Shown: one piece after another, positions 9,599 through 54,081 of the stretch
How the letters are laid out: every line of letters starts with the position of its first letter
How positions within the stretch are numbered: position 1 is the stretch's first letter
Assembly: GCA_965116495.1 (NCBI GenBank)
Contig: OZ220696.1
Coordinates: 1 to 64,000 of the forward strand
Length of the DNA stretch: 64,000 nt
Source: Gammaproteobacteria bacterium
GTDB lineage: Bacteria; Pseudomonadota; Gammaproteobacteria; Eutrophobiales; Eutrophobiaceae
Direction of reading: 5' to 3'
Program-made: the position numbers and the translations under genes
The notes under the pieces: model-generated
What the model was told of the DNA's origin: nothing
The model's database searches: none
What the model saw: only the letters and a program-made list of their open reading frames with translations

Positions 9599-10317
9599 CC
9601 GGTGAGTCGAATTTCTGGGCAGTTATCCCGGCGGGTGGCAGCGGCCGGCGTATGGCAGCGGACAGGCCCAAGCAATACCTGAAGCTGTTGCAGCGGACTG
9701 TTCTCGAACACAGCCTGCTGCCTTTTTGCGAGCATCCGCTGATCAGGGGTATTGCCGTCGTTGTGGCGGATGATGATGAATACTGGCCGACCCTGGCAGT
9801 GTCCGGTCATGCCAGGATCATTACGGCGTCCGGCGGCGTGGAACGCTGTCATTCCGTGTTGAACGGTCTCAGGCGCATCGGGGAAATTGCCGGTGACAAT
9901 GACTGGGTGCTGGTGCACGATGCGGCCAGGCCCTGTGTAACGGCAGCCGACATCGACCGGCTCATTGCCGGACTCAGGTCTCATCCCGTAGGCGGTATCC
10001 TGGCACTGCCGGTCAGGGATACGGTGAAACAGGCAGGGCAGGATCATGAAATCCAGGCGACGCTTGAGCGTGAACGGTTGTGGCGGGCTCTGACACCGCA
10101 GATGTTCCGGCTGGGCCTGTTGCGGAAAGCGATTGCCCTGGCCGTAGCCGACGACCTGCTTGTTACGGATGAAGCCCAGGCCCTGGAATACAGGGGTTAC
10201 CGGCCGGGAATAGTGCAGGGCGGTCCTCACAATATCAAGGTATCCTTGACGGAGGACCTGGCCCTGGCAGAATTTTATTTGACAAGATATTTGAACCCAG
10301 GCCGGGGACAGAACTAA
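9595..10317 (+). CDS. ispD: MEP cytidylyltransferase
   Basis: IPAGGSGRRM..PKQYL, VLVHDAARP, TPQMF, TDEA. Confidence 0.97.
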   Translation: MTGESNFWAVIPAGGSGRRMAADRPKQYLKLLQRTVLEHSLLPFCEHPLIRGIAVVVADDDEYWPTLAVSGHARIITASGGVERCHSVLNGLRRIGEIAGDNDWVLVHDAARPCVTAADIDRLIAGLRSHPVGGILALPVRDTVKQAGQDHEIQATLERERLWRALTPQMFRLGLLRKAIALAVADDLLVTDEAQALEYRGYRPGIVQGGPHNIKVSLTEDLALAEFYLTRYLNPGRGQN

Positions 10318-10326
10318 TTCTGTCCC
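10305..10326. repeat. GGGACAG-type REP-like palindrome (copy 1), overlapping the ispD stop
   Basis: GGGACAGAA-CTAA-TTCTGTCCC; related copies at 20160 and 54552. Confidence 0.7.
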
Positions 10327-10353
10327 TTAAATTTTTTATCGAGGCAGAAAACA

Positions 10354-10821
10354 GTGAGAATTGGCCACGGTTACGATACCCACCGGTTTGTGGGCGGGCG
10401 TCCGCTGATGCTGGGCGGCGTCAACGTGCCCCATGACAAGGGCCTGCTGGCGCACTCCGATGGCGATGTTGTTATCCACGCGTTATGCGATGCCTTGCTG
10501 GGCGCCGCCGCGCTGGGCGACATCGGCGCGCATTTCCCGGATACCAGCAAGGATTTTGAAGACATTGACAGCAGGATACTGTTGCGGCAGGTACGTGCAC
10601 TGCTGGCGCAAAAAGCTTTTACGCTGGTCAATGCCGACATCACCATCATCGCGGAAGCACCCAGGATGGCTCCCCATATCGGCACCATGAGAGACAACCT
10701 CGCCGCCGACCTGGCCGTGGCCGGAGACGCCATTAACATTAAGGCGACCACCAATGAGAAAATGGGCCATCTCGGCCAGCGGGAAGGCATCGCCGTTCAT
10801 GCCGTCGTACTGATCGGATAA
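10354..10821 (+). CDS. ispF: MECDP synthase
   Basis: [31 protein letters not shown]. Confidence 0.98.
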
Positions 10822-10920
10822 GAAACACACTTCGCAATGAAATTACCCGGCGTGATTTTCCCGGCGGGGTGTTTGCCGGTTCCGGCATGGCGGGCTATGC
10901 AGCTATTGTTCTGATGTAGT

Positions 10921-10933
10921 TGTAACAGTTACA
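10921..10933. promoter_or_regulatory. Candidate repressor operator upstream of TonB-dependent receptor 1
   Basis: Perfect 6-1-6 palindrome TGTAAC-A-GTTACA about 40 bp upstream of the start. Confidence 0.35.
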
Positions 10934-10973
10934 CTTGCCGTGACCACTATGCCACTTCATGGGAGAACGACAA

Positions 10974-13361
10974 ATGTTCGATGCGGTCCGTACCAAGTCG
11001 GTTGCATTCCTGGCAATTGCCATTGCTGTACAGGGACCCCGGATATTTGCCGAAGAGCCTGATGACCACGCCCACGACCGAGCCGGTCATGAACACACCG
11101 AGACCGACCATGACCACACTTATACACCGGCCAGCCGGGTGCTTGCAAAGCCCGGCCATGAACATACTCCGGCCGGATATGAGCATATAGAGGAGATTGT
11201 CGTTACTGCCGATCCGTTGGGCGACGTCGATTCCCACCTCATGATGCCTGTCCAGGTGCTCGGCAGAGACGAATTGACGACCCGGAGTATCCGGAATATC
11301 GGTGAAGCGGTTGCCAATGAACTGGGTGTAACCACCAGTGATTTCGGCACCGCCGTAGGACGACCCGTGATCCGCGGTCTGGCCGGTAGCCGGGTCGCCG
11401 TGCTCGAAAACGGCACAAGCACGATGGACGTGTCGAATATCGGCGCTGACCATGCAGTTCCCACAGAACCGGCATTTGCGCGCCAGGTTGAAATTTTTCG
11501 CGGTCCCGCAACCCTGCTGTTCGGCAGTGGAGCCAGCGGCGGCGTGGTCAACGTCGTAAACGACCGCATCCTCAAGTATATCCCGGACACCCTGGAGGGT
11601 GATATATCACTGCAATACGAAACCGTTTCAGACGGTGTGAACGGCGCCGGCAGCTTCAATTTCAGTACGGGTGATTTTGCCGTCCACCTGGATGGCATGA
11701 AGCGCTATACAAAGGATTATAAAATTCCCGGATACGCCGAGTTGAACAGGGACCCCGGGGATGAAATGGAGAAAGGCGTCCTGGAAAACAGCAGTATTGA
11801 ATCGGAAAGTGTCGCCATGGGGGTATCCTGGATCGGTGAACGCGGGTTCGTCGGTTTTTCCGTGAGCCGGTTTGACAGCGACTACGGCATTGTGGGTGGC
11901 CACCATCATGGTGAAGAAGATCTGTTTGAGGAAATGGACCTTCATATGGAAGATGACCATCATGATGATGAAGAGCATCATGATGATGAAGAGCATCACG
12001 AAGATGAAGAGGACCACGAGGGCGAAGACGGCCATGATGACGAAGACGGCCATGATGACGAGGGCGGCCACGATGACGAGGACGGCCATGGTCATGGTGA
12101 AGAAGGTCATGCAGAGGAAGGCGAATCCCGGATAGACATGGGAGTAACCCGTTACGACTTTGAAGCGTCGTTATACGATCCTGTCGGTGCCATACACCGG
12201 ATCAAGACTCGTTGGACTTTTACCGACTACACCCACCATGAAATAGAAGGAAACGGCGATATCGCGGTAACGTTCTTGAATGAGGAGGTGGGAGGCCGCG
12301 TCGAGTTTGTACATCATCCCCTGGGAGGCTGGCAGGGAGCTTTCGGTATCCAGTATCACTACAAGGATTTTTCCGCGTCAGGGGAAGAGGAATTTGTCCC
12401 GCCTTCGGAACTGGAATCCGTTGCTGCGTTCCTGCTGGAAAAAAACGACTTCGGCAAGTGGCATACTGAATTCAGCGCCAGGTACGAACACCAGGAAACC
12501 AGCTCTGAAACCGGTCAGGAAACAGGCCATGACCTGTTCAGCCTGTCCGGTGGTTTGAACTGGAGCTATCACGAGGGCTATGAACTGGGTCTGATCGTTA
12601 CTCATGCCCAACGCGCCCCATCCCTGGAAGAATTATATTCGGCCGGCCCCCATCTCGCGACAGTCACGTTTGAATACGGCGATGCCGAACTGGGCAAGGA
12701 AAAGTCAACCAATTTTGATCTCTACTGGCGCAAGACGACAGGCACGCTTACGCTGACCGCCAATTTATTCTATAACCGGATCAGTGATTTCATATTCCTG
12801 AAAGAACAGGACCTGAACGGGGATGGTATCGCGGACTGGGTGCGTGATGACTTTGCCGGCGACCCTGCAGACATCCTGCAACCCGGGGTGGACGGCACGC
12901 ATTTACTTGTAGCGCAAGTGCAGGAAAAAGTGGATTTCATGGGTTTTGAAGTGGAAGGTGTCGTACATGCCCTGCATGGTGACTACGGCGCCATGGACGT
13001 GCGCCTGTGGGCGGACTATGTTGAAGGTGAGCGTAGCGATAATGTCAACCTGCCACGCATAACCCCCTGGCGTTACGGCGCTGGCATGACATATTTTCGC
13101 GGCCCCTGGTATGCGGCAGTGAACTACACCCGTGTGAATAAACAGAATGACACCGCTCCGTTCGAAACCTCTACCAGGGGCTACGATGACCTGAACCTTT
13201 ATGCCAGCTATCGCATCAGTCATGCCGGCAATGACGTCACCCTGTTTGCCAGCGCCAGCAACCTGCTGGATGAAGAAATACGCCGTCATACTTCTTTTGT
13301 AAAACACCTGGCGCCAATGCCGGGACGTTCGGGCATTTTCGGCGTTCGCGTTTCATTTTAG
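10974..13361 (+). CDS. ZnuD-like TonB-dependent receptor 1 with a His-rich N-terminus and a ~73-aa His/acidic insert
   Basis: Signal peptide, TonB box (EEIVVTA), plug motifs RPVIRGL and VEIFRGPATLLFGSGASGGVVN, C-terminal RVSF; SD GGAGA supports the start at 10974. Confidence 0.9.
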   Translation: MFDAVRTKSVAFLAIAIAVQGPRIFAEEPDDHAHDRAGHEHTETDHDHTYTPASRVLAKPGHEHTPAGYEHIEEIVVTADPLGDVDSHLMMPVQVLGRDELTTRSIRNIGEAVANELGVTTSDFGTAVGRPVIRGLAGSRVAVLENGTSTMDVSNIGADHAVPTEPAFARQVEIFRGPATLLFGSGASGGVVNVVNDRILKYIPDTLEGDISLQYETVSDGVNGAGSFNFSTGDFAVHLDGMKRYTKDYKIPGYAELNRDPGDEMEKGVLENSSIESESVAMGVSWIGERGFVGFSVSRFDSDYGIVGGHHHGEEDLFEEMDLHMEDDHHDDEEHHDDEEHHEDEEDHEGEDGHDDEDGHDDEGGHDDEDGHGHGEEGHAEEGESRIDMGVTRYDFEASLYDPVGAIHRIKTRWTFTDYTHHEIEGNGDIAVTFLNEEVGGRVEFVHHPLGGWQGAFGIQYHYKDFSASGEEEFVPPSELESVAAFLLEKNDFGKWHTEFSARYEHQETSSETGQETGHDLFSLSGGLNWSYHEGYELGLIVTHAQRAPSLEELYSAGPHLATVTFEYGDAELGKEKSTNFDLYWRKTTGTLTLTANLFYNRISDFIFLKEQDLNGDGIADWVRDDFAGDPADILQPGVDGTHLLVAQVQEKVDFMGFEVEGVVHALHGDYGAMDVRLWADYVEGERSDNVNLPRITPWRYGAGMTYFRGPWYAAVNYTRVNKQNDTAPFETSTRGYDDLNLYASYRISHAGNDVTLFASASNLLDEEIRRHTSFVKHLAPMPGRSGIFGVRVSF

Positions 13362-13367
13362 GGAGTA

Positions 13368-13479
13368 AATTTGGGACACCCATAAATTGGGTTTGTGGGT
13401 GTCCTGAATTAGCTGCTCGTCCCCAATTCATGGGTGTCCCAAATTAACATTTAGTCCCAATTTATGGGTGTCCCAAATT
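13368..13479. repeat. 112-bp REP/MITE-like element bounded by perfect 24-bp inverted repeats, with two extra internal copies
   Basis: AATTTGGGACACCCATAAATTGGG (13368-13391) versus its reverse complement at 13456-13479; near-copies at 13422-13445 and 13392-13410. Confidence 0.8.
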
Positions 13480-13538
13480 AGCTTTTGTCGAGAGCAGGTG
13501 TTATTCTGGCCTCGTTCCCGGAGAGGTAGATTATTATC

Positions 13539-14384
13539 ATGTCATTGTTCGAACTCAAGGTTGTTGCAGCATTGGCGATCCTCGCGGTGGGTGTCGTCGG
13601 CGGGGTAATACCGCTCCTGGCGGCCCGGCACGATACAAGCCGCAGGTTTCTCTCTCTCGGCAATGCCCTGGCGGGTGGCATCTTTCTCGGTGCCGGGTTC
13701 ATTCACCTGTTGCCCGAAGCAGGCGAGGCCCTGGAGGGCGTGGTCGATTATCCTCTTGCACCGCTGCTGGCGGCCATCGGCGTAGTCGCGCTACTGCTCA
13801 TAGACCGGGTCCTGTTCGAAACCAGTCACGGGGTGGAATCAGGTGAAGACGGAGATGCGCGCCAGCCGATCTATCCCCTGGTACTGCTGGTGGTTTTGTC
13901 GATCCACTCAGTCATCGCCGGCATCGCCCTCGGGGTCGAGTCGGAACTGGCCGCTTCCCTGCTGGTTATGATCGCTATCCTGTCCCATAAAGGTTCGGCC
14001 GCCTTCGCCCTCATGGTCAGCGTGCAGGCTGCCGGCGCCGACCGCAGACGCCTGAGGCGGGTCCTGACTATCTTTGTGGTCATGACGCCGCTGGGTATCA
14101 TGCTCGGTGCGCTGGCCTCCGGCATCTTTGAAGGAGATGCCGCACTGCTGGTAGAAGGCAGTTTCAACGCACTGGCCGCAGGCACCTTTATCTACGTGGC
14201 TATCCTGGACGTCATCGATGCGGAAATGTCCAGGACCGACGATCGTGTTGCGCATTTCGTACGCAGTTCCCTGCTCGGGGAAGACGATGTGCCCATGCCT
14301 GAGAAGGATACTGACCGCATAGCCAAATTTGTCTTGATATTCGCCGGCCTGATGAGTATGGCCGTACTGGCCCTCTGGGTTTAA
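13539..14384 (+). CDS. ZIP-family metal importer
   Basis: GIFLGAGFIHLLPEA, LSIHSVIAGIALG, SHKG, AAGTFIYVA. Confidence 0.9.
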   Translation: MSLFELKVVAALAILAVGVVGGVIPLLAARHDTSRRFLSLGNALAGGIFLGAGFIHLLPEAGEALEGVVDYPLAPLLAAIGVVALLLIDRVLFETSHGVESGEDGDARQPIYPLVLLVVLSIHSVIAGIALGVESELAASLLVMIAILSHKGSAAFALMVSVQAAGADRRRLRRVLTIFVVMTPLGIMLGALASGIFEGDAALLVEGSFNALAAGTFIYVAILDVIDAEMSRTDDRVAHFVRSSLLGEDDVPMPEKDTDRIAKFVLIFAGLMSMAVLALWV

Positions 14385-14407
14385 GGGCTTGATTGGATGG
14401 TAATTAC

Positions 14408-15394
14408 ATGAGTCCTGCACACCACACCGGGTGCAGCCATGACCACCACCATCAAGCCGGTGCCGGACACGACCACTCCCGCGAGTTGCGCAGTGCCGGC
14501 AAGCGCAGCCTGATCGCCGCCTTTGTCCTGATCTCCGGTTTTATGTGGGTCGAGGTTATCGGCGGCATTGTGTCCGGCAGCCTGGCCCTGCTTGCCGATG
14601 CGGGGCACATGCTAACCGATGCGGCATCCATTGCCCTGGCCCTGGCCGCCATGTATTTTGCCGAGAGACCCCACTCCGTGCAACGCACCTTTGGTTATCA
14701 CCGTCTTGAGATTCTGGCTGCCCTGGTGAATGCATTGGCTCTCTGGTTGATTGTGGCCTGGGTGCTTATCGAAGCCTATGACCGCTTTACTTCAGTAACC
14801 GAAGTAAACGGCGGGCTGATGCTGGGCATAGGCGTCATCGGTCTTGCCGTCAACCTCATCGCTGCCTGGATCCTGCGTAGCTCTTCCGATCACAATGTCA
14901 ATGTCGAGGGGGCGTTTCTGCACGTTATCGCGGACTTGCTGGGATCGGTCGGTGTCGTCATTTCAGGTATCCTGATATGGACCCTGGGCTGGACTCTTGC
15001 CGACCCCATAGTCAGCGTGATCATCGCAATTCTTATACTTGTCAGCAGTTGGCGGCTGATGAAGAAGGTCGTTCACGTGCTGCTCGAGGGTACTCCGGAA
15101 CATGTTGACGTATATCAACTTTGCCGCAAACTGGAAGCGGTGGAAGGTGTTACCCTGGTCCATGACATCCATGTCTGGACACTATCTGCCGGCAACGAAG
15201 CACTTACCGCGCATATCCTGATAGATCCGGACTTCCCGGGCGACCCGGAAGACCTGCGCCTGCGTCTGCGGGGCATTATTTACAACGATTTCGGCATCGG
15301 TCACATAACCCTGCAGGTGGAAAAATCACTGGAAGGATGCTCTGAAGACCACCATTTTGATCACTTGGCGACCCCTGTGGGTTCGGCAGACTAA
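14408..15394 (+). CDS. Cation diffusion facilitator (CzcD/ZitB-like) with a His-rich N-terminus
   Basis: SLALLADAGHMLTD, TFGYHRLEIL, AFLHVIADLLGS, VHDIHVW, HITLQVE. Confidence 0.95.
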   Translation: MSPAHHTGCSHDHHHQAGAGHDHSRELRSAGKRSLIAAFVLISGFMWVEVIGGIVSGSLALLADAGHMLTDAASIALALAAMYFAERPHSVQRTFGYHRLEILAALVNALALWLIVAWVLIEAYDRFTSVTEVNGGLMLGIGVIGLAVNLIAAWILRSSSDHNVNVEGAFLHVIADLLGSVGVVISGILIWTLGWTLADPIVSVIIAILILVSSWRLMKKVVHVLLEGTPEHVDVYQLCRKLEAVEGVTLVHDIHVWTLSAGNEALTAHILIDPDFPGDPEDLRLRLRGIIYNDFGIGHITLQVEKSLEGCSEDHHFDHLATPVGSAD

Positions 15395-15416
15395 TCTGCA
15401 CCGTATCCCGTGACCA

Positions 15417-15610
15417 CAGGGCAACCGCATACTTTTGGATTCTGCCGCAAAGGACCGAAATAAGGCAGGAAAAGGCCGTCCGTCATTCCGGCGAATGCCG
15501 GAATCCAGTCAAAAAAATGATTCCTTATGGTAACAGGTTGGTTTGTTCACTGGATTCCGGCATTCGCCGGAATGACGATAGGCCGGATTCAAAAGTATGC
15601 GGTTGCCCTG
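15417..15610. mobile_element. 194-bp MITE-like element with a nested REP pair
   Basis: Terminal inverted repeats CAGGGCAACCGCATACTTTTG (21 bp perfect, 27/30 overall); CCA on both flanks; internal perfect 29-bp inverted pair at 15481-15509 and 15549-15577. Confidence 0.8.
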
Positions 15611-15640
15611 CCAGTGACCACTGGGGTGGTAGTAAACTTC

Positions 15641-15668
15641 TTGACAGTGAGTATTGGTATCCTATAGT
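15641..15668 (+). promoter_or_regulatory. Sigma70-type promoter of the leader-peptide/receptor 2 unit
   Basis: TTGACA-16 bp-TATAGT, ending 10 bp before the ATG at 15679. Confidence 0.6.
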
Positions 15669-15678
15669 CTTTGTTCAT

Positions 15679-15966
15679 ATGTCAGTCAGGTATAAACAGT
15701 TTACAGGTTGGTTTCTTGCTGCCCTGATCCTTTGCGGACAGTCGGTTGCGCTTGCCCACGAATCCGGCCATGATCTCAAGCTCACGGACGAGTATTGTGT
15801 TCAATGCCTGACACAGTCCGTATTTGACGACAACGCAGTTGTCCCGGTATCTGAATTTACCGTCCTGTCTTCTGCCGGCAATGTCCGGGTACTGGATGAA
15901 GGCAGATATCATTCCACTTATTCACGCACTAATTCCGCACGCGCCCCTCCTGTATCTCCCACATAA
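15679..15966 (+). CDS. DUF2946/CruR/CutF-like leader peptide (signal peptide, HxxxH, CxxC, C-terminal RAPP arrest motif)
   Basis: MSVRYKQFTGWFLAALILCGQSVALAHESGH...YCVQC...NSARAPPVSPT; directly upstream of a TonB-dependent receptor. Confidence 0.85.
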   Translation: MSVRYKQFTGWFLAALILCGQSVALAHESGHDLKLTDEYCVQCLTQSVFDDNAVVPVSEFTVLSSAGNVRVLDEGRYHSTYSRTNSARAPPVSPT

Positions 15967-16034
15967 CGTTTCAAGTCTGTTTATCCGGATAACGCGCCGC
16001 GTTATTCCCGAATTGGTTATGAGGAGGTATGGGA
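15948..16034 (+). promoter_or_regulatory. Predicted mRNA structure sequestering the SD and start codon of receptor 2
   Basis: 15948-15959 and 15962-15967 pair with 16023-16034 and 16016-16021 (18 bp including 3 G-U); inner hairpin 15987-16007. Confidence 0.7.
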
Positions 16035-18971
16035 ATGTACTGGTACAACCTGAAATTTATCGTCCTGTTGACTGCCGTTACGGGCATTCATGGGACGTTC
16101 GCGCTTGCCGATGAGCCGGCCGATCACGCCCACACGCAAGAAGTCGGCGAACACGCGCCTGCCGGTGGTGAGAGTATCGAGGAGATCAAGGTCACTGCCG
16201 ACCCGTTATCCGAGGTCGATGCCCATATAATCAGACCTGTCCAGGTCCTGTCGAAAGAGGAGCTGAAATCCCGCAGCATCCGCAACGTTGGTGAAACGGT
16301 TGCCAATGAACTGGGTGTCTCGTCCAGTGATTTCGGCACAGGAGTGGGCCGTCCTGTTATCCGGGGGCTGGGCGGCAGCCGCGTGCAGGTGCTGGAAAAT
16401 GGGCTCAGCACTATGGACACAGCTGCTCTCAGCGCTGATCATGGGGTGCCGTTGGAATCGGTGTTTAGCCAGCAGGTTGAGATTTTTCGCGGTCCCGCAA
16501 CGCTGCTGTTCGGCAGCGGCGCAAGCGGCGGCATTGTCAATTATGTGAACGGCCGCATACTGGATTACGTGCCTGACGACGTGGAAGCCGAGGTAGCCTT
16601 GCAATATGAAACGGTCTCGGACGGTATGACCGGCGCCGGCAGCATGAACTTCGGCGCAGGTAAGTTTGCCTTCCACATAGACGGAATGGCGCGCAATACC
16701 GGCGATTACAATATACCGGGATTTGGCGAACTGGAGCCGGGCGAGTCCCGGCGCGGCGTCCTGGAGAACAGCAGTATTGATACGGAGAATATATCGGGAG
16801 GCTTGTCCTGGATCGGGCGGCGCGGATTTGTCGGGTTTTCCGTCAGCCGCTATGAAAACAACTATGGCATACAGGGACATCACCACCATGGTGATGAGGA
16901 CGGACATCTTCACGGTATGGAAGACATGCATCTTCATGATGATGATGAACATGACCATGATGATGATGAACATCATGACGATGAGGACGATGAACACGAC
17001 CATGATGAAGAAGAGGGACATCATGACGATGAGGACGATGAACACGACCATGATGAAGAAGAGGGACATCATGATGATGAGGACGAGCATCACGACGAGG
17101 AAGAGGGACATCATGATGATGAGGACGAGCATCACGACGAGGAAGAGGGACATCATGACGATGAAGAAGAGCATCACGACGAGGAAGAGGAACATCATGA
17201 CGATGAGGAAGAGCATCACGACGAGGAAGAGGGACATCATGACGATGAAGAAGAGCATCACGACGAGGAAGAGGACCATCATGACGATGAGGAAGAGCAT
17301 CACGATGATGAAGACATGGACCATCATGACGATGAGGAAGAGCATCACGATGACGAAGACATGGACCATCATGACGATGAGGACGAGCATCACGATGATG
17401 AAGACATGGACCATCATGACGATGGGGAAGAGCATCACGATGATGAAGACATGGACCATCATGACGATGAGGACGAGCATCACGACGATGAAAACGGACA
17501 CCATGACGATGAGGACGAGCATCACGATGATGAAGACATGGACCATCATGATGATGAGGACGAACATCATGACGATGAAAACGGGCATCATGACGATGAG
17601 GAGGAGGGACACGACCATGATGAGGAAGACGGGCATCATGATGATGAGGACGATGAACACGACCATGATGAGGAAGACGGGCATCATGATGATGAGGACG
17701 ATGAACACGACCATGATGAGGAGGAAGAAGGTGGTGTACGCATCGACATGAGACAGACCCGTTACGATTTTGCCGCGGCCCTGGATGATCCGTTCCCCGG
17801 TCTGAGCCGCATCAAGATGCGCTGGGGTTTCAATGACTATAAACACGATGAAATCGAACCGAGTGGAGAGGTGGCCACAGCCTTTGACAATGAGGAGGTG
17901 GAAGGCCGCGTGGAGTTCGTCCATAACCCCATCGGCGCCTGGAACGGCGTTGTCGGCTTCCATTACCGTCACAAGGACTTCGCGGCTGTAGGCGCGGAGA
18001 GCTTTGTCCTGCCGTCGGAACTGGAGTCGGTCGGGGTATTCATCCTGGAACGGACCGATATCGGACAATGGCATATTGACCTGGGCGCAAGGTTTGAACA
18101 CCAGGACACGAGCGCAGAGACGGGTGCTGAAAACGATTACGACCTGTTCAGCGCCTCCGGCGGTTTAAACTGGGATTATGCCCCGGGCTACCAGGTCGGC
18201 CTTTCCGTGAGCCATGCCGAGAGAGCGCCGTCGATTGAAGAGTTGTATGCGCTGGGTCCACACCTGGCGACCGCGACGTTTGAGGTCGGTGATACCAACC
18301 TGGCTAAGGAAAAGTCCAATAACGTTGATATCTACTGGCGTAAAACGACGGGTAAATTCACTTTTACAGCCAACTTCTTCTATAACCGGATTGATGATTA
18401 CGTCTACAAGCAGGAACAGGACCTGAACGGGGACGGTTTCGCCGACCGGGTGGCGGAAAATTTTGACGGCAACCCGGCAAATATCCTGGACCCGGATGAC
18501 GACGAGGAACCCTTACTGGTTTACCTGAGTCAGGACGATGCGGAATTTCTGGGATTTGAAGCGGAAACCAGGGTGCGGCTTATTGATAATGACCGCGACA
18601 GGATGAATTTGCGTTTATGGGGAGACTACGTGGAAGGTGAGCGCAGCAACGGTATCGACCTGCCGCGTATCACACCCTGGCGCTTCGGTTCCGGTCTTAC
18701 CTACTCCCGCGGGGCCATGTCTGCATCCGTCAACTATACCCGCGTGAATGAACAGGACAATACCGCGCCGCTGGAGACGGAGACAGGCGGCTATCACCTG
18801 CTGGATATCCATGCCGATTACACGTTCAGGCTGGGCGGCAACACGGTATCACTGTTTGCCCGTGCTTCCAACCTGCTGGATGAAGAGATACGCCGGCATA
18901 TCTCTTTCGTGAAAGAGCAGGCGCCGCTGCCGGGGCGTTCCGGCATATTCGGCCTGCGTTTGTCGTACTAG
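16029..18971 (+). CDS. ZnuD-like TonB-dependent receptor 2 with a ~284-aa His/Asp/Glu repeat insert
   Basis: Signal peptide, EEIKVTA, RPVIRGLGG, VEIFRGPATLLFGSGASGG, C-terminal RLSY; paralogue of 10974-13361. Confidence 0.92.
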   Translation: MGMYWYNLKFIVLLTAVTGIHGTFALADEPADHAHTQEVGEHAPAGGESIEEIKVTADPLSEVDAHIIRPVQVLSKEELKSRSIRNVGETVANELGVSSSDFGTGVGRPVIRGLGGSRVQVLENGLSTMDTAALSADHGVPLESVFSQQVEIFRGPATLLFGSGASGGIVNYVNGRILDYVPDDVEAEVALQYETVSDGMTGAGSMNFGAGKFAFHIDGMARNTGDYNIPGFGELEPGESRRGVLENSSIDTENISGGLSWIGRRGFVGFSVSRYENNYGIQGHHHHGDEDGHLHGMEDMHLHDDDEHDHDDDEHHDDEDDEHDHDEEEGHHDDEDDEHDHDEEEGHHDDEDEHHDEEEGHHDDEDEHHDEEEGHHDDEEEHHDEEEEHHDDEEEHHDEEEGHHDDEEEHHDEEEDHHDDEEEHHDDEDMDHHDDEEEHHDDEDMDHHDDEDEHHDDEDMDHHDDGEEHHDDEDMDHHDDEDEHHDDENGHHDDEDEHHDDEDMDHHDDEDEHHDDENGHHDDEEEGHDHDEEDGHHDDEDDEHDHDEEDGHHDDEDDEHDHDEEEEGGVRIDMRQTRYDFAAALDDPFPGLSRIKMRWGFNDYKHDEIEPSGEVATAFDNEEVEGRVEFVHNPIGAWNGVVGFHYRHKDFAAVGAESFVLPSELESVGVFILERTDIGQWHIDLGARFEHQDTSAETGAENDYDLFSASGGLNWDYAPGYQVGLSVSHAERAPSIEELYALGPHLATATFEVGDTNLAKEKSNNVDIYWRKTTGKFTFTANFFYNRIDDYVYKQEQDLNGDGFADRVAENFDGNPANILDPDDDEEPLLVYLSQDDAEFLGFEAETRVRLIDNDRDRMNLRLWGDYVEGERSNGIDLPRITPWRFGSGLTYSRGAMSASVNYTRVNEQDNTAPLETETGGYHLLDIHADYTFRLGGNTVSLFARASNLLDEEIRRHISFVKEQAPLPGRSGIFGLRLSY
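16878..17729 (+). repeat. In-frame tandem repeat array encoding HH+acidic units of 7-9 aa
   Basis: Exact 48-bp duplication (16971-17018 and 17019-17066) and exact 42-bp duplication (17067-17108 and 17109-17150), plus many variants. Confidence 0.97.
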
Positions 18972-18983
18972 GAATTATCCGGC

Positions 18984-19502
18984 TTATTTATCCGGGAAGA
19001 GCGGGTCAGGAAGGTCATAGAATTCAATTTCTACGCTTTTCTGGCCCCCCCGGCGGGCGTCGACTTCCTGGATATTGGAATCAGGCGGCTCTTTAAATTC
19101 TCCCAGTTGCTGCATGCCTTTATTCAGTTTTGATTTTGCCGCGATCACTGTTTCATGGAGGTCCGCGGAATAAGCCAGTTTAAAAGACCTGGGCTGGGTC
19201 CGCCCCGACAGATCATCCAGGTCTTTGAGCCACAGGTAAATCATTCCCTCAGCGCCTGTCGATTTATCCGGTTGTACTATGTCCGCGCCGATCAGGCGAA
19301 AGCGTTCCGGCGGTTGTTCCCCGGTCGGCCAGCCAAGCAACGGGGGAAAGGACAGGTAAGTCACAACGTACAGGAGTGCAGTCACGATTATGGAACCGGC
19401 CTTGACTTTCCAGGACCAGTTTGAATACAGGTTGATACTCAACAGCAGCAATGCTATCAGGACGTAGGCGGCGACCAGCCCCGTTATTCCCAGTACATAC
19501 AT
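18984..19502 (-). CDS. Uncharacterised membrane protein (2 N-terminal TMs plus a soluble domain); last gene of the MotA-like module
   Basis: 172-aa ORF with SD (AGAGGAG) and a hydrophobic N-terminus; co-oriented with the module. Confidence 0.75.
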   Translation of the reverse strand: MYVLGITGLVAAYVLIALLLLSINLYSNWSWKVKAGSIIVTALLYVVTYLSFPPLLGWPTGEQPPERFRLIGADIVQPDKSTGAEGMIYLWLKDLDDLSGRTQPRSFKLAYSADLHETVIAAKSKLNKGMQQLGEFKEPPDSNIQEVDARRGGQKSVEIEFYDLPDPLFPDK

Positions 19503-19537
19503 GATAATTCTCCTCTGTGCCCTCTATTATTTTTTCT

Positions 19538-20131
19538 CTATCCGATAGAGACCAGTTGTTTGGGTAAAAAGTTGATATTTGATATTTTTCCATCGATGTT
19601 GATGCGAAACCGGAAAGCCGTTTTTTCATCTCCCGCCTTTTTCAGGGTGACCGTGTCGTAATAGACAATTTCCAGGGCAGGGTTGACTTTCACCAGACGC
19701 ACCTGTACATCGACGGGCCTGTCGGTTTCAGTGGCATAATAATGCAGGTTGACGATGTACTCGCCTTTTACGACGCCCCGGATCGTTACTACTTCCTGGT
19801 TGAGGGGATTTTGCAGCTCTTCACCATTAACCACAATCGTATCGTTGATCAATCCCCTGTCATCACGGTCCAGGTGCAGCAGCCCGGCTTCCGGGTTGCG
19901 GAACCAGATCACCCTGCCGTCGGGGTCTTCCACCCAGACGTCAATGTCATCGGGGCTGTCATCTTCCCAGGTAACGGTAAGGATATATTCTGCCTTGGGG
20001 TCGATGATTCCTGACTTGGCCTCGGGGTTCATGAACATGATTGCCACGAGGAACAGAAATGTAAAACCCAGTAGTGCATTGAACAGCAAGTCCGTGAATG
20101 GGTCCGACTGGTAGCGTCTGTAGTTGTTCAC
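19538..20131 (-). CDS. ExbD/MotB-like single-TM protein with a YfaP/DUF2135-like periplasmic domain
   Basis: DPFTDLLFNALLGFTFLFLVAI helix with Asp; TW...DIDVWVEDP...LDRDD pattern. Confidence 0.65.
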   Translation of the reverse strand: MNNYRRYQSDPFTDLLFNALLGFTFLFLVAIMFMNPEAKSGIIDPKAEYILTVTWEDDSPDDIDVWVEDPDGRVIWFRNPEAGLLHLDRDDRGLINDTIVVNGEELQNPLNQEVVTIRGVVKGEYIVNLHYYATETDRPVDVQVRLVKVNPALEIVYYDTVTLKKAGDEKTAFRFRINIDGKISNINFLPKQLVSIG

Positions 20132-52599: not shown

Positions 52600-54081
52600 A
52601 TGTCTGCTTTACCCGTGGAATTATATACTGCCGGTCAAGTACGGGAACTGGATCGAATCGCGATTGTAGAACGGGGAATTCCATCGCTTACGTTAATGGA
52701 ACGGGCAGGGGATAGTGCCTTTGGCGTGATCACCAGGCGTTATCCCGATGCAAAAAATCTTGTTGTTATCTGCGGTGGCGGAAATAATGCCGGTGACGGT
52801 TATGTGCTGGCGCTCCTTGCGAAACAGGCGGGACTTGAGGTCAGGGTGGTGGCCCTGGTCGAACCTGAACAGCTCGGGGGAGATGCCGCTACCAGTGCGC
52901 AAAAGTACCTGCGTACGGGTACTGTTGAAGATATTCAATCAATTGACGACGCCGATTTAATCGTCGACGCCATACTGGGAAGCGGTCTGAACCGTCGCGT
53001 GGATGGTGTTTATGCCCAGGCAATCGGATTGGTCAATGAAGCAGCAGCCCCGGTCCTTGCCCTGGATATCCCCTCTGGATTGAATGCAGATACGGGAGTG
53101 TGCATGGGGACGGCTGTGCGGGCCGATGCTACAGTGACGTTCATCGGGTTGAAACGGGGACTGTTTACCGGAGAAGGACCCGGTTTCTGTGGTGAGATAT
53201 TGTACAGTGACCTGGCAACACCCGCTGACATCCACGCTTCAGTCAACGCCGATGCGCAACTGATTGAACCGAAGGCCGTGTTGCAGAACCTGCACGCCCG
53301 TCCGCGCCATGCCCATAAGGGCCGCTACGGTCACGTACTCGTCATCGGCGGTGATTACGGTTACCTGGGCGCAGCCATCCTGGCCGCGTCTGCGGCGGCC
53401 AGGACCGGGGCCGGGCTGGTTACGGTGGCGACACGGGTGGAGCACGCCGGAAATATAGCGCTGTTCCGTCCCGAATTGATGACCGCGGCCGTGACCTCGG
53501 CGCGGGACCTGGACGCGGTATTAAACAGGGTAAGCGTAGTCGCGATTGGACCGGGGCTGGGCCAGTCAGACTGGGCAATATCATTGTTTGCCAAGGTGTT
53601 GCAGACACGGCTTCCGCTCGTGGTGGACGCCGATGCCCTGAACCTGCTGGCCCTTGAACACCAGCGCCGGGAAAACTGGGTGCTGACACCGCACCCGGGT
53701 GAGGCGGCCCGGTTGTTGGATGGGACGACCGGGGAGATTCAAGCGGACAGGTTTGCGTCTATCGGATTATTACAGGCTGAATATGGCGGTGTTGTCGTCC
53801 TGAAGGGAGCCGGCAGCCTGGTCATGGAAGAGTCCGGTCCGATCTACCTCAATCGTAGTGGCAATCCGGGGATGGCCGGCGGCGGAATGGGTGACGTCCT
53901 GACCGGCATCATTGCCGGCTTGATGGCCCAGGGTATGGCGCCCGGCATGGCTGCAAAATCCGGGGTTTACCTGCACGGTCATGCAGCAGACCTCTGTGCC
54001 GGCGCCGGCGAAAGAGGGATGCTGGCCGGTGATCTCCTGCCTGTCATTCGTTCTGCCGTTAATCCGAAGCGATGCGCTTGA
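52600..54081 (+). CDS. nnr: Bifunctional NAD(P)HX epimerase/dehydratase
   Basis: LMERAG, GNNAGDG, DIPSG, HKG.YG, TPHPGEAARLL, GGMGDVL. Confidence 0.97.
   Translation: MSALPVELYTAGQVRELDRIAIVERGIPSLTLMERAGDSAFGVITRRYPDAKNLVVICGGGNNAGDGYVLALLAKQAGLEVRVVALVEPEQLGGDAATSAQKYLRTGTVEDIQSIDDADLIVDAILGSGLNRRVDGVYAQAIGLVNEAAAPVLALDIPSGLNADTGVCMGTAVRADATVTFIGLKRGLFTGEGPGFCGEILYSDLATPADIHASVNADAQLIEPKAVLQNLHARPRHAHKGRYGHVLVIGGDYGYLGAAILAASAAARTGAGLVTVATRVEHAGNIALFRPELMTAAVTSARDLDAVLNRVSVVAIGPGLGQSDWAISLFAKVLQTRLPLVVDADALNLLALEHQRRENWVLTPHPGEAARLLDGTTGEIQADRFASIGLLQAEYGGVVVLKGAGSLVMEESGPIYLNRSGNPGMAGGGMGDVLTGIIAGLMAQGMAPGMAAKSGVYLHGHAADLCAGAGERGMLAGDLLPVIRSAVNPKRCA

Follow-up and report, generated by a model that had tools for sequence, protein, structure and literature searches.

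A predicted ribosome-arrest leader with a likely zinc link and a Shine-Dalgarno-sequestering stem precedes a ZnuD-like receptor gene in a gammaproteobacterium

The only metal for which post-transcriptional sensing by nascent peptides has been demonstrated is copper, through the CruR and CutF leaders. CruR (Bp2923, DUF2946/PF11162) is encoded upstream of bfrG in Bordetella pertussis and has a spacer of 45 residues between a CxxC motif and a RAPP motif (PMC9426467). Its arrest was shown in vitro in a report that describes both RAPP and RSPP as arrest-competent (PMC12992588). In Rhodobacter capsulatus, a ribosome stalled on CutF, which is encoded upstream of cutO, melts a stem that shields the downstream Shine-Dalgarno (SD) sequence (PMC9973294; 10.1101/2025.02.05.636593). 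Short open reading frames encoding RAPP upstream of TonB receptors have been listed before (PMC12992588, PMC9973294), and nickel and cobalt variants were suggested in PMC9973294; the word zinc is absent from the main texts of both papers. Roy et al. state that no riboswitch is known for zinc or copper.

The stretch of DNA analyzed here (the window) comprises the first 64,000 nt of a gammaproteobacterial genome (G000) that is assembled in one contig of 4.3 Mb and is 99.5% complete. The features described below lie on the forward strand unless stated otherwise. A reading frame of 95 codons (15679-15966), supported by homologues and profile matches, encodes a predicted arrest peptide. A sequence-only reading of the window had described it as having a signal-like N-terminus, the motifs HESGH and CVQC, and a C-terminal RAPP, all of which the translation bears out. 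Residues 1-26 (15679-15756) form a signal-peptide-like or membrane-anchor segment which, by inspection, has hydrophobic residues at positions 8-20 and ends with the site ALA. HESGH (15757-15771) follows directly, and together with CVQC (15796-15807) it makes up a predicted metal site, H27-x3-H31...C40-x2-C43 (15757-15807). The predicted arrest motif RAPP (15940-15951) lies 44 residues past C43 and is followed by VSPT and the stop codon. An AlphaFold2 (AF2) model of the leader (pLDDT 81, pTM 0.43) has a helix at residues 3-33, a turn, a second helix at residues 41-50 and an unstructured tail, and a search of the PDB for similar folds gave no match to it.

A sigma70-type promoter (TTGACA-16-TATAGT, 15641-15668) with 11 of 12 consensus matches stands immediately before the leader, with 10 nt between the end of its -10 element and the leader ATG. 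Promoter matches of at least 9/12 at 9-11 nt from the ATG recur in 17 of 33 genus leader copies. Because of this recurring placement, the mRNA that carries the leader and the receptor gene is predicted to be nearly leaderless. A longer, 149-aa version of the leader starting at ATG 15517 was rejected since both the promoter and homologue M1 favor the start at 15679. Among the 87 TonB-receptor genes of the genome, only the one downstream of the leader (receptor 2) has an upstream reading frame with CxxC and RxPP. A second reading frame in the window that encodes RAPPVSPP (53420-53689, reverse strand) serves as a chance control: it has no signal and no CxxC, and it is antisense to a real, YjeF/Nnr-like gene (52600-54081).

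Word searches retrieved 20 close homologues of the leader, and a wide profile search of 1.84 billion representatives retrieved 83 homologues. After 6 of these 83 representative hits had been dropped beforehand as partial or fused, the alignment (A5) held 78 sequences. H27, C40, R88, P90 and P91 are invariant in all 78, an invariance that is inflated because the homologues were chosen with a profile containing the motifs. Position 43 is Cys in 76 of the 78 and His in the other 2, and Q21 occurs in 70. H31 is present in 51 and absent from a third, and position 89 of the RxPP motif is A, G, S or D. The spacer between CxxC and the Arg measures 43-46 residues in 75 of 76 homologues, and between the motifs the sequence is free while the length is fixed. 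A close profile matched 20 of 23 genus genomes, with at most five matches per genome, and the wide profile matched 113 of 400 Gammaproteobacteria genomes.

The leader resembles CruR in having an N-terminal export signal or membrane helix (judged by inspection and the AF2 helix), a CxxC at almost the same distance from a C-terminal RAPP (44 residues), and a position as the first gene before a TonB-dependent importer, which metal would be expected to turn off. Unlike CruR (145 aa), it is only 95 aa long and has an additional HxxxH. The gap to the next gene is 68 nt with an SD-sequestering stem, whereas CruR has a gap of 162 nt and acts by Rho termination, and its ZnuD-like target and Zur links contrast with the association of CruR with copper. 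The proposal that the leader is of the DUF2946 type failed, as the PF11162 HMM gives no match for it. That HMM matched one of 21 close homologues (E = 0.048) and, weakly, 23 of 78 distant homologues (best E = 3.5e-4), and a single homologue within the class scored just above the cut-off (23.8 vs 23.7). As far as these profile comparisons of sequence reach, the relation of the leader to DUF2946 is one of distant kinship, not membership.

The leader shares with CutF an exported N-terminus, a Cys motif, a Pro-rich tail, and a stem over the downstream SD, the last of these by prediction and conservation. It also falls within the rules by which CutF-like leaders are described in PMC9973294, namely fewer than 150 residues, a signal peptide, PP in the last 15 residues and a same-strand neighbor within 1000 nt; here the PP is at residues 90-91. 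CutF differs in that it has, as described, a CxxxC copper motif and a PPP tail in place of CxxC and RAPP and is EF-P dependent. Moreover, copper is described as inducing the CutF stall and thereby turning on a detoxifying enzyme, whereas this leader has an importer as its target, and its stall should therefore be relieved by metal.

With respect to that target, the sequence-only reading placed the leader in the context of a ZnuD-like receptor with ZIP and CDF genes, and HMM matches support this assignment. Receptor 2 (16035-18971, 978 aa) has ZnuD as by far its best NCBIfam family (E = 2.5e-131) and ZnuD 4RDR as its sole PDB match at E<=1e-10 (E = 1e-76). Its score of 439.5 bits against NF038289 (ZnuD) is below the curated cut-off of 950 bits, a value that no receptor target reaches, and the protein is ZnuD-like rather than ZnuD proper. 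Upstream of the leader are the genes for a leaderless ZnuD-like receptor (receptor 1; 10974-13361), the only ZIP transporter of the genome (13539-14384) and a ZitB-like CDF protein (14393-15394). Receptor 2 contains a His/Asp/Glu tract of 285 residues (16875-17729; 78 His, 181 Asp plus Glu), as opposed to 76 residues in receptor 1, and the receptors of relatives vary in length between about 710 and 980 aa. The tract in receptor 2 is probably a surface metal-scavenging loop.

Within the genus, 20 of 28 leader copies precede ZnuD-like receptors (assigned by sequence likeness, two of them checked by HMM) and four precede non-ZnuD receptors, two of these with PepSY genes and one of the two also with COG0523. 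The remaining four precede CbiM-like ECF transporters with COG0523, and these CbiM-like targets suggest cobalt or nickel. Across the class, the best 89 of 116 non-self matches were taken in rank order. In the top 29 loci, HMM matches make seven targets ZnuD-like, another 19 resemble a barrel protein of the outer membrane that has no name (for 11 of 19 the next gene was checked, and it is of the ZnuA family) and three are unassigned. The next 60 loci comprise 41 barrels (37 then followed by a ZnuA-family gene), 12 ZnuD-like receptors, two ZrgA proteins, three targets without an assignment and two loci with no target. The ZnuA Pfam family also includes manganese and iron binders. Rather than heading copper-homeostasis operons as CruR does, the leaders precede genes for ZnuD-like, ZnuA-family, ZrgA, COG0523 and CbiM-like proteins. 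No next gene in the 89 class loci was identified as a copper gene, although in eight of them the next gene is missing or unassigned. The commonest target of the leader is an outer-membrane protein of about 400-480 aa with a FNPAISLIL-like motif (L137:3935-5299, L145:2864-4126 and about 60 other loci). No Pfam or NCBIfam family matched the members scanned, and the gene is followed by ZnuA-family and ABC-3 genes, which makes the protein a candidate TonB-independent metal channel.

The genome has 87 TonB-receptor plug domains and a single ZIP transporter, as well as one Fur-family gene, which lies beside bamE and encodes Fur proper. Profiles of Zur-like proteins matched nothing in the genome besides Fur, and no ZnuA was found. 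Neither component of a Zur regulon, a zur gene or a box at the promoter, was detected in this genome; the best match to the Zur motif at the leader promoter has two mismatches, and none of 34 genus leader copies has a Zur box. In searches for Fur-family genes, ZnuA and Zur boxes, the leader was the only zinc-control element found at the receptor 2 gene. A single Fur-family match is seen in 20 of 23 genus genomes, and three others (G004, G009 and G014) have a second, Zur-like gene alongside leaders. The simplest reading of these distributions is that the lineage lost zur and its box and kept the leader.

Relatives outside the genus link the leader to Zur. The proteobacterial Zur motif is GTTA-N5-TAAC (PMC4176598), and a matching site is described in PMC9817125. 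Among Zur-positive genomes, 13 of 38 have a site with at most one mismatch before the leader, compared with 4 of 51 among Zur-negative ones (p=0.002, a value that overstates the association because the genomes are kin; six loci picked for their nearness to zur are omitted). Exact matches number seven and one, respectively, and 25 of the 38 Zur-positive leaders have no box. The boxed leaders include genomes in which zur is far away, and several boxed homologues lack the second Cys. Of the 48 genomes with both a leader and zur, 11 have the two within 1.2 kb of each other, the copy in G038 being degenerate, and in G160 and G312, which belong to the same family, zur, the box, the leader and a ZnuD-like receptor gene form one block. 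We considered whether the leader replaces Zur as a class-wide rule, and rejected this because the 400 genomes (including G063 and omitting G243) divide into 48 with both, 65 with the leader only, 96 with Zur only and 191 with neither; the odds ratio of 1.47 (p=0.11) indicates no mutual exclusion. We propose that in relatives the leader forms a second layer of control under Zur.

Might the leader work as a stall-and-stem switch that senses cobalt, nickel, manganese or copper instead of zinc? The layout of CxxC, a spacer of 44-45 residues and RAPP is that of the copper-sensing CruR (PMC9426467), and His27 directly after the AxA site resembles N-terminal-His copper sites described in PMC12537917. 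The four genus copies that head CbiM-like ECF transporters point the same way, as do the Zur-negative genomes that often have the leader, the barrel and a ZnuA-family protein, a combination that does not fix the metal. However, the Zur boxes and zur adjacency in relatives, together with the ZnuD-like and ZrgA targets, favor zinc. The CbiM-like operons also carry COG0523, a common member of Zur regulons (PMC6103462), no copper neighbor was identified in the class loci as noted above, and some homologues with a Zur box do without the second Cys. We therefore consider a different metal unlikely, though it is the alternative to be taken most seriously, and the leader is likely a zinc sensor that turns the importer on when zinc is scarce.

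The sequence-only reading proposed an 18-bp stem and an inner hairpin between the leader tail and the receptor start, and RNAfold reproduces both exactly. The anti-SD arm (15948-15967) consists of the end of the Pro codons, VSPT and the stop codon, and the right arm (16016-16034) contains the SD AGGAGGT (16022-16028). The stem pairs 15948-15959 with 16023-16034 (12 pairs) and 15962-15967 with 16016-16021 (six pairs), with three G-U pairs and a 2x1 internal loop, and the inner 9-bp hairpin (15987-16007) shortens the loop. The reading also had the stem covering the SD and the receptor start codon. The first part stands and the second does not. A start codon at 16029 was rejected, since it is 1 nt past GGAGG and is replaced by ATT in the closest orthologues (L001 and L002). 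ATG 16035 is 7 nt past GGAGG and is invariant in 23 of 23 aligned copies. With ATG 16035 as the receptor start, just 3' of the stem, the stem buries the SD and the spacer, and the AUG abuts it.

Several controls indicate that the pairing is specific. Relative to shuffled sequences, the fold has a z-score of -0.7 for a wide fragment (15930-16045) and -3.0 for a tight one (15946-16037; 2/200 shuffles). The cost of opening the ribosome-binding site (RBS), 16.4 kcal/mol, is the highest of the 87 TonB-receptor genes in the genome, for which start codons were chosen automatically and the median is 6.4. Synonymous recoding of the tail lowers the cost to 9.6+-1.7, with only 2 of 200 recodings reaching the observed value. 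In the same control across the genus, at most two randomizations reached the copy's own value for 18 of 23 copies, and one copy, L068, failed (30/40). As for covariation, five stem pairs have double-sided changes among 14 aligned genus copies (9 of 23 having been dropped beforehand for long or divergent gaps) and 85% of stem cells pair vs 38-45% for slid partners, but the shuffle control within the genus is modest, with 12-40 of 500 shuffles reaching the observed values. In the inner hairpin 94% of cells are paired and there is one double-sided change; the possibility that this hairpin is a DNA operator was rejected because G-U and G-C exchanges preserve the pairing. Across the class, tails vary in sequence yet match their own SD: the duplex of tail and SD averages -16.9 for own partners vs -12.1 for swapped ones in 28 loci, and -15.1 vs -10.6 in another 49 loci; in neither set did any of 20000 permutations attain the difference (the tests omit 2/29 and 11/60 loci without a callable start or RxPP, and some loci are kin). 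Judged from these sequence comparisons, the SD-hiding stem appears to be under selection. A search of 10000-20000 against Rfam gave no family at the gathering score.

Alternatively, the main output of a zinc-responsive arrest may be Rho-dependent termination, like that of CruR, and the SD stem may be secondary. A stretch with more C than G (15880-16017; C 31-36% vs G 13-19% in 78-nt windows starting at 15880-15940) overlaps the arrest codons and the anti-SD and could be a Rho-loading site. The genome has a rho gene, no intrinsic terminator was found after the leader, and polymerase might pause at the conserved inner hairpin. Nonetheless, the C-richness is expected from the Pro codons and the anti-SD, the gap is short compared with that of CruR, and in loci across the class each tail pairs specifically with the SD of its own locus. 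Termination by Rho as the main output thus seems rather improbable.

A stalled ribosome would be expected to open the stem. We simulated its footprint by blocking those bases that a ribosome would cover when Pro90 occupies its P site, as toeprinted for CruR (PMC12992588). This footprint reduces the opening cost in 23 of 24 copies, and at this locus the cost for the SD alone falls from 9.7 to 4.2-5.8 kcal/mol. The cost for the whole RBS is still 8.9-10.7 kcal/mol, high among controls, and opening is therefore predicted to be only partial.

From the sequence, its conservation, the predicted structure and the gene context we infer arrest, metal binding, the direction of the response and the compartment as follows. 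The constitutive-looking sigma70 promoter would produce a near-leaderless leader-receptor mRNA, and the N-terminus of the leader would target it to the membrane. By analogy to the CruR toeprint, the ribosome would arrest when Pro90 occupies the P site and Pro91 the A site, and its footprint over about 15946-15960 would occupy the anti-SD arm and free the SD to the computed extent. Synthesis of an importer should be turned off by metal. As the resting stem is off and the stalled ribosome on, the arrest should persist in low metal and metal should release it. Zn2+ bound to H27, H31, C40 and C43, 44 residues from the arrest site, might fold the predicted helix-turn-helix and pull the chain free. 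The ligands are 47-63 residues from Pro90 and outside the tunnel, so folding would take place at or across the membrane. With ample zinc, the stall would be released and the stem would shut off receptor synthesis. The logic would be that of CruR, in which metal relieves arrest and the importer is turned off, combined with the SD-stem output of CutF and SecM. The earlier interpretations of an arrest leader, an SD stem and a non-copper metal gain support from the conservation, the pairing controls, the neighbors and the Zur boxes of relatives. As a regulatory cassette the locus is real; its stall-and-stem switch is well supported by the comparative and modeling evidence and the zinc link fairly supported, and for the complete zinc switch, in which low zinc stalls the ribosome and opens the SD while zinc folds the His/Cys site and closes the stem, we lean somewhat toward its being correct.

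SecM, ApdA and ApdP also have a C-terminal RAPP-like motif and a localization signal and control a downstream gene. As described (PMC12992588; PMC10987492), they differ from the leader in monitoring protein export, controlling sec genes and having no metal site. It is conceivable, though quite improbable, that the leader is such an export monitor, in which pulling by Sec releases the arrest and so couples production of the receptor to the capacity for secretion, and the His and Cys residues form a disulfide or structural element rather than a metal sensor. Its signal-like N-terminus, RAPP and SD stem reproduce the SecM/ApdP layout, and the cysteines of CutF have been proposed to act through disulfides (10.1101/2025.02.05.636593), but H27 and C40 are invariant and the targets are confined to metal-uptake genes and do not include sec genes. 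A precedent for release by zinc is the synthetic ADR1a-SecM construct, in which zinc-dependent folding of a His2Cys2 domain frees the arrest peptide (PMC4571824). The zinc switch proposed here would similarly couple the folding of a His2Cys2 site near an arrest peptide to release, although the synthetic domain is described as folding in the tunnel, 20-30 residues from the arrest site, whereas the leader site is 44-60 residues away.

A candidate relative is ZrgD (DUF2607/PF10795), whose gene opens the zrg zinc operon that Zur represses in Vibrionaceae (PMC9817125, PMC9820375). The protein has 101 aa with a single helix, and its knockout had no growth effect in the experiments reported in PMC9820375, a result that would fit the loss of an anti-SD. 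Like the leader it is about 100 aa long, with one membrane helix and a terminal position, beside zrgA, in a zinc-uptake operon, and two homologues of the leader precede zrgA. ZrgD has never been described as an arrest peptide, and the likeness comes from its description and a look-alike score in the ESM Atlas, where the leader is near a DUF2607 cluster (0.95). PF10795 gave no match for the leader or the two zrgA-linked leaders and weak matches for 4 of 78 homologues (best 4.4e-4), and genome-wide searches with PF10795 and PF10986, which gave no match anywhere, control genomes included, carry no weight either way. The nearest ESM Atlas cluster is auto-named 'ABC-type zinc uptake system zinc chaperone' (0.96), but a small periplasmic or membrane zinc chaperone that acts as a finished protein, with the stem providing plain translational coupling, is very improbable given a C-terminal half that is fixed in length, unconserved in sequence and without a folded domain in the AF2 model, a RAPP motif that ranks with the 4-mers most strongly avoided in bacterial proteomes (PMC12992588), and a gene directly before its target in nearly all loci examined.

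More tentatively, and with the chances somewhat against the statement as a whole, the leader may represent a widespread, Zur-independent zinc sensor in which a nascent HxxxH...CxxC finger, 44 residues from the RAPP arrest site, senses zinc at the membrane and gates the translation of outer-membrane zinc importers in more than a quarter of sampled Gammaproteobacteria. It would be a second tier under Zur in some, and the sole uptake switch in this lineage, where zur and its box would have been lost and the leader occurs in 4-5 copies in some genomes; the ZrgD/DUF2607 protein of Vibrio would be the same device. In the literature searched, which was mostly outside subscription journals, we found no description of a zinc-sensing arrest leader. 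New here are the zinc assignment and the Zur-less setting, and the neighbor table of PMC9973294 (File S1) or the bioRxiv supplements could already list ZnuD-like neighbors. If the proposal is true, zinc would be controlled by two routes, Zur and a fast one alongside it, which would explain how bacteria lacking Zur, this genus among them, keep from making the importer constitutively. A family present in 113 of 400 sampled Gammaproteobacteria, and possibly DUF2607/ZrgD as well, would gain a function open to testing, and the synthetic zinc-finger force assay would have a natural counterpart. At 300 nt, the cassette is small enough for direct cell-free testing.

Five copies of the leader lie within 26 kb in one genome (L083-L085; G014:C3:2.80-2.84 Mb), about 8 kb from a Zur-like gene, and head different metal-uptake units (ZnuD-like receptors, other receptors, and CbiM-like ECF transporters with COG0523), an arrangement that points to duplication of the leader as a portable regulatory cassette. 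L081 (G011:C3:2032904-2033149), a divergent paralogue that has a single Cys and ends in an RPPPTGPP tail, precedes a non-ZnuD TonB receptor. Frameshifted or truncated copies are found in G015 (L071/L080, contig C3), where the stem and receptor are kept, and in G038 (L093/L143, contig C55), where the copy is behind a Zur box and no zinc gene follows.

Metatranscriptome searches gave two assemblies that hold 6-14% of the words and a contig from a relative (15 differences) that spans 15868-16182; since contigs cannot show transcription, it was not used as support. In several relatives a leader directly follows ispF, which suggests that the control region of the receptor 1 copy was lost or exchanged. 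A perfect palindrome upstream of receptor 1 (TGTAAC-A-GTTACA, 10921-10933) is unique in the genome and is not the Zur motif. A short AT-rich, repeated and palindromic element with GGGTGTCCC units lies between the receptor 1 and ZIP genes (13364-13490). Another palindromic repeat (15480-15575), situated after the CDF gene and ahead of the leader promoter, has a sub-threshold match to the Rfam family WsnRNA46 and a 30-nt core that occurs in 95 copies in the genome at up to four mismatches.
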